Shown here piece after piece: positions 2,208-2,310 of a stretch of 5,053 nucleotides of DNA. Under the pieces are notes generated by a model, which was not told where the DNA came from, did not search any database, and worked only from the letters and a program-made list of their open reading frames with translations. The first letter of the stretch is position 1; the number at the start of each line of letters is the position of its first letter. The translations under genes and the position numbers were made by a program. The DNA lies in IMG/VR virus record IMGVR_UViG_2579779049_000020; one strand, 5' to 3'. The stretch comes from a virus (Duplodnaviria > Heunggongvirae > Uroviricota > Caudoviricetes).

Positions 2208-2219
2208 ATTGAGAGTGGA

Positions 2220-2259
2220 TCTTGAACGGAAATTCTCAAGACTTGAGTCTTGCATGCAA
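2220..2259. promoter_or_regulatory. Cluster of palindromes upstream of ORF 2311..2832 (candidate operator)
   Basis: Inverted repeat TCTTGA (2220..2225) and TCAAGA (2236..2241), a further CTTGAG (2242..2247), and a perfect 10-bp palindrome TTGCATGCAA (2250..2259). Confidence 0.4.
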
Positions 2260-2278
2260 ATCAATTCCTGGATAAACT
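2250..2278 (+). promoter_or_regulatory. Candidate sigma70 promoter for ORF 2311..2832
   Basis: -35 TTGCAT (2250..2255), a 17-bp spacer, and -10 TAAACT (2273..2278). The -35 is embedded in the 10-bp palindrome. Confidence 0.45.
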
Positions 2279-2310
2279 CGATCTGAGTCAATAACTTAGA
2301 GAGAGAGCAA

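Follow-up and report, generated by a model that had tools for sequence, protein, structure and literature searches.

In the 5,053-nucleotide stretch of Caudoviricetes DNA analysed here (IMG/VR record IMGVR_UViG_2579779049_000020; hereafter the window), which is the immunity region of a lambdoid Stx-type prophage in the orientation opposite to the usual lambda map, a gene for a 173-amino-acid protein, ORF173, lies downstream of cI. We propose, with a probability of roughly 80%, that ORF173 has its own promoter within an insulated, cI-independent unit; palindromes at this promoter are most likely operators, with ORF173 itself as the most likely ligand. Specifically, a sigma-70-type promoter, P_orf173 (2250–2278), would start transcription near 2285–2286 and drive a self-contained moron-like unit comprising ORF173, a structured spacer, a 40-amino-acid open reading frame (ORF) and a terminator at 3134–3160, while a second terminator at 2184–2207 would insulate it against the pRM transcript of cI. 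The phage CI and Cro proteins would not control P_orf173; rather, the operator sites would most likely be the inverted repeats that straddle the −35 element, chiefly CAAGACT-tg-AGTCTTG (2237–2252), with further sites perhaps in TCTTGA/TCAAGA upstream and in the GATC/TGAGTC region at the start site. With ORF173 as the most likely ligand, the unit would be autoregulated, probably by autorepression. We infer the promoter activity, the start site, the binding to the palindromes and its ligand from the sequence.

The elements of the proposed unit and of its promoter region are the following:

2184–2207, plus strand: intrinsic terminator, with the hairpin GGTCGCA-gaga-TGCGGCC (stem 2184–2201) followed by TTTTTTATT; called by the terminator scan
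2220–2241: inverted repeat TCTTGA (2220–2225), 10 nt, TCAAGA (2236–2241); candidate distal operator half-sites (repeat finder, I7)
2237–2252: 16-bp palindrome CAAGACT (2237–2243)-tg-AGTCTTG (2246–2252) (repeat finder, I5)
2242–2247: CTTGAG, a repeat in the spacer
2250–2255, plus strand: −35 hexamer TTGCAT, 3/6 consensus, inside TTGCATGCAA (2250–2259)
2256–2272, plus strand: promoter spacer, 17 nt
2273–2278, plus strand: −10 hexamer TAAACT, 4/6 consensus
2285–2310, plus strand: predicted transcription start, G2285 or A2286 at the usual 7-nt distance after the −10 hexamer, and leader of 25–26 nt
2311–2832, plus strand: ORF173, 173 amino acids, identical to ECs1184 / H0093 / ORF23 of Sp5
2845–3000, plus strand: conserved spacer that separates ORF173 from the small ORF, with a predicted RNA structure in three parts
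3006–3128, plus strand: small basic His/Cys-rich ORF, 40 amino acids, H0092 in VT2-Sakai, PHROG 21154
3134–3160, plus strand: closing intrinsic terminator upstream of OL/PL; called by the scan and also a terminator in the VT2-Sakai annotation

Every element that the original prediction had named (TTGCAT, the 17-nt spacer, TAAACT, the palindrome over the −35 element, TCTTGA, TCAAGA and CTTGAG) is found where it had been placed. P_orf173 has the 16–18-nt spacing of a sigma-70-type promoter and, as a weak match, retains TTG and TAnnnT. The predicted start corresponds to NC_002695.2 ~1,256,577–1,256,578, minus strand, in strain Sakai, and the leader, which is unstructured (z = +0.8) and kept in sequence across the closer subfamily, holds a conserved ribosome-binding region, AACTTAGAGAGA. 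No promoter is annotated at ORF173 in the database records examined, VT2-Sakai included. A differential RNA sequencing data set of strain Sakai exists (PMC7547250, GSE143631); the HnrS paper (PMC13502914) deals with late-region small RNAs and is irrelevant to this promoter.

P_orf173 is judged to be real because of its footprint across relatives, not because of statistics within the window. Loci were gathered by homologues of ORF173 with 33–100% protein identity, yielding 27 representative loci from Sakai-type phages, Salmonella phage Oslo, Salmonella, Cronobacter, Yersinia, Proteus, Morganella and Serratia as well as from IMG/VR and metagenome contigs. A strict TTGnnn-17/18-TAnAnT pattern, ending 25–32 nt 5′ of the start codon, is present in 24 of the 27 and arises in 0.7% of shuffled upstream regions, and the remaining three loci (two from Serratia, and L070) carry TTGACT-17-AAAAAT or TTGATT-18-TATTAT in the same register. 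All 27 loci have TTG at the −35 register as well as A at the second and T at the sixth position of the −10 element (TAAACT, TAGAAT, TAGACT, TACACT, AAAAAT or TATTAT), with a spacing of 17 nt or, in five loci, 18 nt. The cTTG and the A residues of the −10 element are invariant in a 12-sequence alignment (A1), and between subfamilies the spacer and flanks become unalignable, yet the TTG and the A/T positions of the −10 element stay. The skeleton keeps its register even where the upstream genes differ or sit on the other strand, as in the metagenomic locus L018. In addition, a generic promoter scan calls the orthologous sites of Proteus (TTGCAA-17-TAGAAT, 9/12) and Serratia (TTGACT-17-AAAAAT, 9/12). 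This conserved skeleton amounts to a clear phylogenetic footprint of a promoter, and positions 2250–2278 very probably constitute a functional sigma-70-type promoter, in agreement with the separate ORF173 promoter 3′ of the terminator that the original prediction had put forward.

The terminator at 2184–2207, which had likewise been predicted upstream of the promoter, sits 43 nt 5′ of it and folds with −13.3 kcal/mol (z = −3.5 against shuffles). It is a convincing terminator, with which the cI-DUF3024 (pRM) transcript ends just 5′ of the promoter. Its hairpin, GGTCGCAgagaTGCGGCC, is kept in nearly all enterobacterial loci (Salmonella, Proteus, Serratia, Morganella, Cronobacter, Yersinia), and the changes among relatives (T-to-C, loop) preserve the stem; in Cronobacter and Yersinia the T run has decayed and a second terminator comes after it. 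Such a strong terminator between the DUF3024 gene and ORF173 argues against an arrangement in which a functional promoter is missing, ORF173 depends on read-through from pRM on a cI-DUF3024-ORF173 transcript, and hexamers and palindromes are products of chance. The same holds for the register of the skeleton beside differing or opposed upstream genes (L018) and for the scan calls in Proteus and Serratia. What read-through has in its favour is a 7/12 match of a kind that is common by chance in the window, the VT2-Sakai record, where the hairpin after H0092 is labelled as the pRM terminator and no H0093 promoter is annotated, and the example of bstA in Salmonella phage BTP1, which lies downstream of cI and is co-transcribed from one start site (PMC7067206). 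We consider read-through very improbable as the source of ORF173 expression.

In phages of the 933W/phi24B type, the DUF3024 gene is followed by the hairpin GGTCGCAGAGATGCGGCC (L001:2686–2705, compared with window 2184–2202), which lacks the T run and continues into tgattctaaaat. The window and the 933W/phi24B types part exactly after the hairpin, with the latter going on to res/stk, and this divergence immediately 3′ of the hairpin means that the hairpin also marks a recombination joint. It serves as a terminator in one mosaic and, apparently, as a read-through joint in the other. Many relatives (L005:2845–2905, L008, L010, L014, L006, L039) carry an extra segment of ~100 nt between terminator and promoter, which holds a LexA-box-like CTG-N10-CAG, for example aaCTGaattcatataCAGtg, adjoining a TTGAC(A/G) hexamer. 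In Cronobacter, Yersinia and L039 this segment is followed by a hairpin and T run (aaccctc-tgat-gagggttttttt). The segment, which the window allele does not have, may give rise to a short SOS-controlled transcript in these relatives.

With the promoter in place, the next element of the proposal is its independence from cI. Between the window and Sakai, ORF173 is 100% identical and CI 22% identical, and the same pair of values is found between the Salmonella loci L012 and L013; over the ten loci compared, the identity of CI is mostly 17–69% and that of ORF173 54–100%. The same promoter is found beside cI proteins that are only 17–24% identical. The element conserved here therefore cannot be an operator for any single CI. 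Among the matches listed, none to the 933W-type operator (CGTACTTTCAGTACG type) falls within 2200–2310, and outside OR (986, 1011, 1042) and OL (3328, 3352) the matches reach at most 11/15. The CII box TTGC-N6-TTGC occurs nowhere in the window, its second repeat being missing in the homologous loci too, and a LexA box, CTG-N10-CAG, is likewise absent from the window. The 933W-type CI/Cro operator, the LexA box and the CII box were rejected as elements of P_orf173 on these grounds. The shuffling of the unit among unrelated cI types, together with the lack of a 933W-type operator match, agrees with the earlier suggestion that ORF173 is controlled independently of cI, which the comparison of these sequences makes well supported.

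The promoter lies within a dense cluster of inverted repeats. In 2208–2310 there are five inverted-repeat pairs with arms of at least 6 nt, compared with 0.5 expected (0.2% of shuffles reach this number), and a 7+7 repeat arises in 2.3% of shuffles of the 103-nt spacer. This clustering is unusual, but the emphasis of the original prediction on TTGCATGCAA was misplaced. Although TTGCATGCAA is a perfect 10-bp palindrome over the −35 element (2250–2259), it is unconserved and no more than chance would give: the window contains three 10-bp palindromes versus 5.4 expected in shuffles, and ~10% of shuffles of the 103-nt spacer contain a gapless 5+5 palindrome. It is confined to E. coli alleles, with TTGCATATGA in Salmonella, TTGCAAATCT in Proteus, TTGCGCGACG in Cronobacter and TTGCTTAAAA in Yersinia, and we regard it as incidental. 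The conserved palindrome is CAAGACT-tg-AGTCTTG, which was not spelled out in the prediction but takes in its TCAAGA and CTTGAG; it overlaps the TTG of the −35 element and is centred ~−40/−41 from the predicted start. An identical copy is present in Salmonella Oslo, and at the same place Yersinia and L039 have TAAGACT-t-AGTCTTG and Morganella CAAGATT-a-AGTCTTG, while Proteus and Cronobacter match 5/7 positions per arm. In L018, which shares 52% protein identity and cannot otherwise be aligned, this position is taken by a perfect AAGACTGATCAGTCTT, and a second palindrome, AGACTGATCAGT, lies between the −35 and −10 elements. The AAGACT/AGTCTT palindrome is unique within the window and within the first 50 kb of VT2-Sakai, where a second copy was looked for as a pointer to other targets. 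The upstream arms TCTTGA...TCAAGA are kept in the Salmonella alleles, where the inner acggaaattc is replaced by ccagacata, and this repeat is missing in more distant loci.

Distant subfamilies have the same promoter with other palindromes, either TTCATCGATCGATGAA upstream and TTGATCGATGAAT across the −35 element, or, within the spacer, TGATCG-N7-CGATCA. At an unchanging promoter, palindromes that vary from one protein subfamily to the next form the pattern expected of an autoregulator that co-evolves with its operator. Across 23 representative loci, GATC is also enriched, with 1.65 copies per 80-nt promoter region versus 0.22 in the rest of the same loci (7.5-fold). It lies near the promoter in 22 of the 23, at a lineage-specific position beside the −10 element, the −35 element or the start, and often forms the centre of a palindrome. 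In the window, GATC is found at 2218–2221 and at 2280–2283, the latter just 5′ of the predicted start. GATC may be part of the operator, or alternatively Dam methylation may modulate the promoter. We also observe an 8+8 palindrome, TTCAAGGA-ct-TCCTTGAA (2341–2358; repeat finder, I2), within codons 11–16 (F-K-D-F-L-E) of ORF173, which has a TCAAG/CTTGA core in common with the promoter repeats; it was set aside as a regulatory site, being inseparable from the coding constraint on these conserved codons.

The enrichment of GATC bears directly on an alternative in which P_orf173 is a genuine promoter but is essentially constitutive, or answers to a host factor or Dam methylation instead of to ORF173, with the palindromes being sites for host factors, methylation-sensitive elements or relics of recombination. 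The placement of GATC in 22 of 23 loci, and at 2280–2283 just before the predicted start in the window, would suit methylation control, as would the dam gene that VT2-Sakai-type phages carry, encoding a Dam methylase of their own. Many of the −10 elements read TAnACT, extended to TCTAnACT in a distant subfamily, and these forms resemble the preference of sigma-S. That the palindromes differ by protein subfamily nevertheless fits a co-evolving phage ligand better than a single host factor, and the frequent position of GATC at the centre of a palindrome may simply reflect its being part of the operator. Furthermore, we know of no E. coli factor whose motif is recognizable in 2210–2300. Morons often have simple constitutive promoters (PMC3594210), which again favours the alternative, and overall we consider it less likely than not.

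The preferred ligand, ORF173, belongs to PHROG 2602, a family of 664 clusters at 50% identity whose members are all ~165–200 amino acids long; searches of ORF173 gave no Pfam match above cut-off, no NCBIfam family and no PADLOC family. Its AlphaFold model has a mean predicted local distance difference test (pLDDT) score of 71, rising to 85–90 over residues 11–90, and consists of an N-terminal four-helix domain, an acidic disordered linker (102–127) and a beta-beta-alpha C-terminal domain of ~45 amino acids. The modelled N-terminus has the four-helix arrangement of a tyrosine-recombinase core-binding (SAM-like) domain, with which a sub-threshold Pfam match to Phage_int_SAM_1 agrees. Pfam finds no integrase catalytic domain (R-H-R-Y active site) in the 173 amino acids of ORF173, and the protein is therefore not an integrase. 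On the basis of the model, it is plausible that ORF173 is a DNA-binding protein. The neighbouring palindromes would then be its candidate operator, as suggested by their subfamily-specific forms and the modelled DNA-binding fold, and, provided that the promoter is real, autoregulation of P_orf173 by ORF173 is a tentative assignment to which we give somewhat less than even odds. Deletion of the identical gene ECs1184 (ORF23) from an Sp5 lysogen failed, leading the authors to suggest that it is needed for stable lysogeny, and of the early-region genes of this Stx2 prophage, only ECs1184 and one other resisted removal (PMC5155283). The ECs1184 protein was recovered in the RNA-associated proteome of enterohaemorrhagic E. 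coli cultures (false discovery rate 0.065), and in a direct assay of RNA binding it resembled the negative control (PMC7618764). Both the failed deletion and the recovery in the proteome are consistent with expression in lysogens.

Several observations weigh against this proposal. The hexamers of the window allele are poor (3/6 and 4/6, 7/12 in total), and TTGCAT-17-TAAACT does not reach the threshold at which the consensus promoter scan of the window makes a call, so that statistics within the window cannot decide the promoter question. Indeed, matches of 7/12 quality occur ~25 times per kb per strand in the window, and the promoter match taken alone is no more than chance. Because the loci share descent, the 24 of 27 are not independent and represent some seven lineages with unalignable flanks, and the annotators of VT2-Sakai assumed that the pRM transcript runs through H0093. 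With respect to the operator, the Serratia loci and L017 have no obvious palindrome and lack the AAGACT/AGTCTT form, and the central gap of this form varies (0, 1, 2 or 4 nt), which a single binding geometry would not lead one to expect. A position near −41 would also be compatible with activation instead of repression. Finally, the DNA-binding role of ORF173 derives from a model with a mean pLDDT of 71 and from fold similarity only.

The inverted repeats might alternatively act in RNA: a transcript entering from upstream would contain them as an attenuator or a processing structure. In a minimum-free-energy structure they could pair in read-through RNA, for example as UCUUGA-N10-UCAAGA. The 103-nt spacer folds like its shuffles, however (z = −0.18; 82 of 200 shuffles are at least as good), and the 2-nt centre of the 7+7 palindrome is too short for the loop of an RNA hairpin. 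Since, in addition, the region has no Rfam match and the arms are without compensatory changes in distant loci, we consider a role in RNA to be very improbable, and the least probable of the explanations.

Downstream of the promoter, the unit runs from the terminator at 2184–2207 and the promoter at 2250–2278 through ORF173, a spacer of ~170 nt and the 40-amino-acid ORF to the terminator at 3134–3160 (−14.3 kcal/mol, z = −4.75), and the Proteus locus has the same layout, ending in an analogous terminator. For the spacer of the window, RNAalifold on five sequences predicts 52 pairs, of which seven are compensatory. Conserved structured elements of ~150–170 nt occupy this place in relatives (L005:3522–3677, L006:3540–3692, L052:2019–2171, L072:2083–2246 and others). 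In a sister subfamily (11 sequences), 91.7% of cells pair, compared with 34–46% when the partners are slid, and 16 of 36 pairs are compensatory as against 3–5 in the slid controls; an invariant U-G pair (columns 10/44) points to a transcript of the plus strand. An Rfam search with the spacer element gave no match. The fold of the window element, in three parts, is laid out much like that of the sister element. The covariance model of the sister element (R1) misses the window element, with filters off too, and a common RNA family is therefore not claimed. The inner part of the first spacer hairpin (window 2854–2877, compared with L004:3667–3690 and L017) is the reverse complement between alleles, reading CAACTCCCCAGTCC in the window and AGACTGGGGAGTTG or GGACTGGGGAGTTG in Salmonella and L017, so that the tip of the hairpin has been flipped and its stem kept.

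The small ORF, which is kept with substitutions in Salmonella, Cronobacter and Yersinia, is probably the last gene of the ORF173 unit. The slot after the spacer is occupied, according to lineage, by three unrelated kinds of small basic Cys/His-rich ORF (window 3006–3128; L005:3675–3848; L006:3690–3833), namely a 40–44-amino-acid HVNAYERIRHGNLEHVCEHYRSRP type as in the window, a 57-amino-acid type with ...KCRFRKARAKAGTPDSERKILDAHAYGYKCWSFPVR, and a 47-amino-acid type with CxxC...CGC.

Morons, a concept attributed to Hendrix and Juhala, are reportedly independent transcription units added between conserved phage genes. The ORF173 unit resembles them in having its own promoter and terminators on both sides, in its location between cI and OL/PL, and in occurring with unrelated neighbours, with some loci having ORF173 directly after cI; the slot holds other cargo elsewhere, such as res/stk in 933W/phi24B. 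P_orf173 is thus an ordinary moron-type promoter, bracketed by terminators as phage accessory genes often are. Morons have been reviewed (PMC3594210), and the cI-to-N interval is a recognized hotspot for accessory loci (PMC7067206). In contrast to typical accessory morons, the Sp5 copy seems to be indispensable to the lysogen (PMC5155283). P_orf173 also differs from a plain promoter in carrying operator-like palindromes, and a moron-type shift in composition was not found, the GC content of the unit being no different from that of its flanks (0.444 for ORF173 and 0.388 for the spacer, with 0.434 for the window).

Phage lambda carries rexAB in its cI-to-N slot, and rexB, which is expressed in lysogens, has, besides transcription from pRM, an internal promoter, pLit, in the cI-rexA-rexB region. 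ORF173 similarly lies in the cI-to-N interval downstream of cI and would have a private promoter. By contrast, it has no relation in sequence or fold to the Rex proteins, and a terminator parts it from pRM; rexA and rexB, for their part, are also transcribed together with cI. The bstA gene of the Salmonella prophage BTP1 occupies the same slot directly 3′ of cI and is expressed in lysogeny, but a single start serves both cI and bstA, with transcription crossing an 88-bp gap (PMC7067206). ORF173 is instead preceded by a terminator and a conserved promoter, and the proteins are unrelated, with ORF173 having no PADLOC match. The closest known systems also include the integrase-like prophage repressors MrpR (YopR) of SPbeta and SroF of phi3T. 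As in type II toxin-antitoxin operons, the unit has a palindrome over its promoter, a first protein that combines a modelled N-terminal DNA-binding domain with a disordered acidic region, a gene for a small basic protein next to it, and a first gene that could not be deleted in Sp5 (PMC5155283). It differs from them in that a structured spacer puts 173 nt between the first gene and the small ORF, instead of an overlap or a few bases, and in that the second ORF is swapped among three unrelated kinds. The proteins of the unit matched no known toxin or antitoxin family.

A broader reading, which we hold to be doubtful, is that the unit represents an undescribed, cI-independent, self-regulated prophage module that is distributed across Enterobacterales and beyond (664 protein clusters) and needed for the viability of the lysogen. 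Its parts would be a stand-alone integrase core-binding-domain protein whose binding sites are the GATC-containing palindromes of its own promoter, a ~150-nt structured RNA that is absent from Rfam, and an interchangeable small basic Cys/His-rich protein. If true, the module would be a second layer of repression, or a device for addiction or abortive infection, and its requirement for lysogen viability would explain why ECs1184 could not be deleted from Sp5. The importance lies more in the gene behind the promoter and in the conserved RNA element than in the promoter itself. The promoter, the candidate operator and the candidate DNA-binding fold together make the puzzle of the undeletable gene approachable by experiment, and a module that keeps Stx prophages stable or excludes other phages would bear on the maintenance and spread of toxin phages.

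The remaining features of the window are as follows:

308–604, minus strand: cII
743–970, minus strand: cro
~986–1056: OR operators
1049–1756: cI, helix-turn-helix plus S24 peptidase
1817–2158: DUF3024 gene, 3′ of cI
~3328–3370: OL/PL
3620–4003: N
4065–4688: Nmad5 gene

The gene order thus runs from cII and cro on the minus strand through cI, the DUF3024 gene, the terminator, ORF173, the small ORF and the closing terminator to PL and N. Outside 2203–3300 the window is ~99% identical to Stx2 phages of the 933W/phi24B type, which have res-stk after the DUF3024 gene in place of the ORF173 unit, the sequence in common with 933W-type phages extending up to 2202. Positions 1780–3203, in turn, match phages of the VT2-Sakai (Sp5) type at 94.7%. 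Because of these two patterns of identity, the window is read as a mosaic in which, judging from the alignments, a 933W-type cI has been joined to a Sakai-type ORF173 unit. No phage record and no complete E. coli genome covers at least 80% of the window in one place, the best single-piece match being E. coli EC2001 (window 338–4001, 96.2%), and it is therefore uncommon to find a 933W-type cI beside the ORF173 unit. Of 5,426 complete E. coli genomes, 233 contain the unit; most of these are O157:H7 or other Shiga-toxin strains, and in the 233 the gene is at least 99% identical and annotated only as hypothetical.

The DUF3024 gene upstream of ORF173, for which we found no paper that mentions DUF3024, matches the PADLOC candidate defence model PDC-S43 in the window (E = 5e-42). 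It also precedes ORF173 in the Proteus and Morganella loci and is missing from most others. Its counterpart in VT2-Sakai (L002 ~2538–2879) contains a stop codon (gaaatggca changed to gaaataaca) and is unannotated, and this stretch is for these reasons probably a pseudogene. A 15-bp direct repeat, tgaagagacgtttgg, flanks the DUF3024 gene of the window (1789–1803 and 2160–2174). Both copies read in frame ...EETFG-stop (GNQWPEETFG* at 1775–1807), which is the C-terminus of the CI of the Sakai/Cronobacter type, and they resemble remnants of the 3′ end of another cI, marking what look like the recombination joints by which the DUF3024 gene came in.

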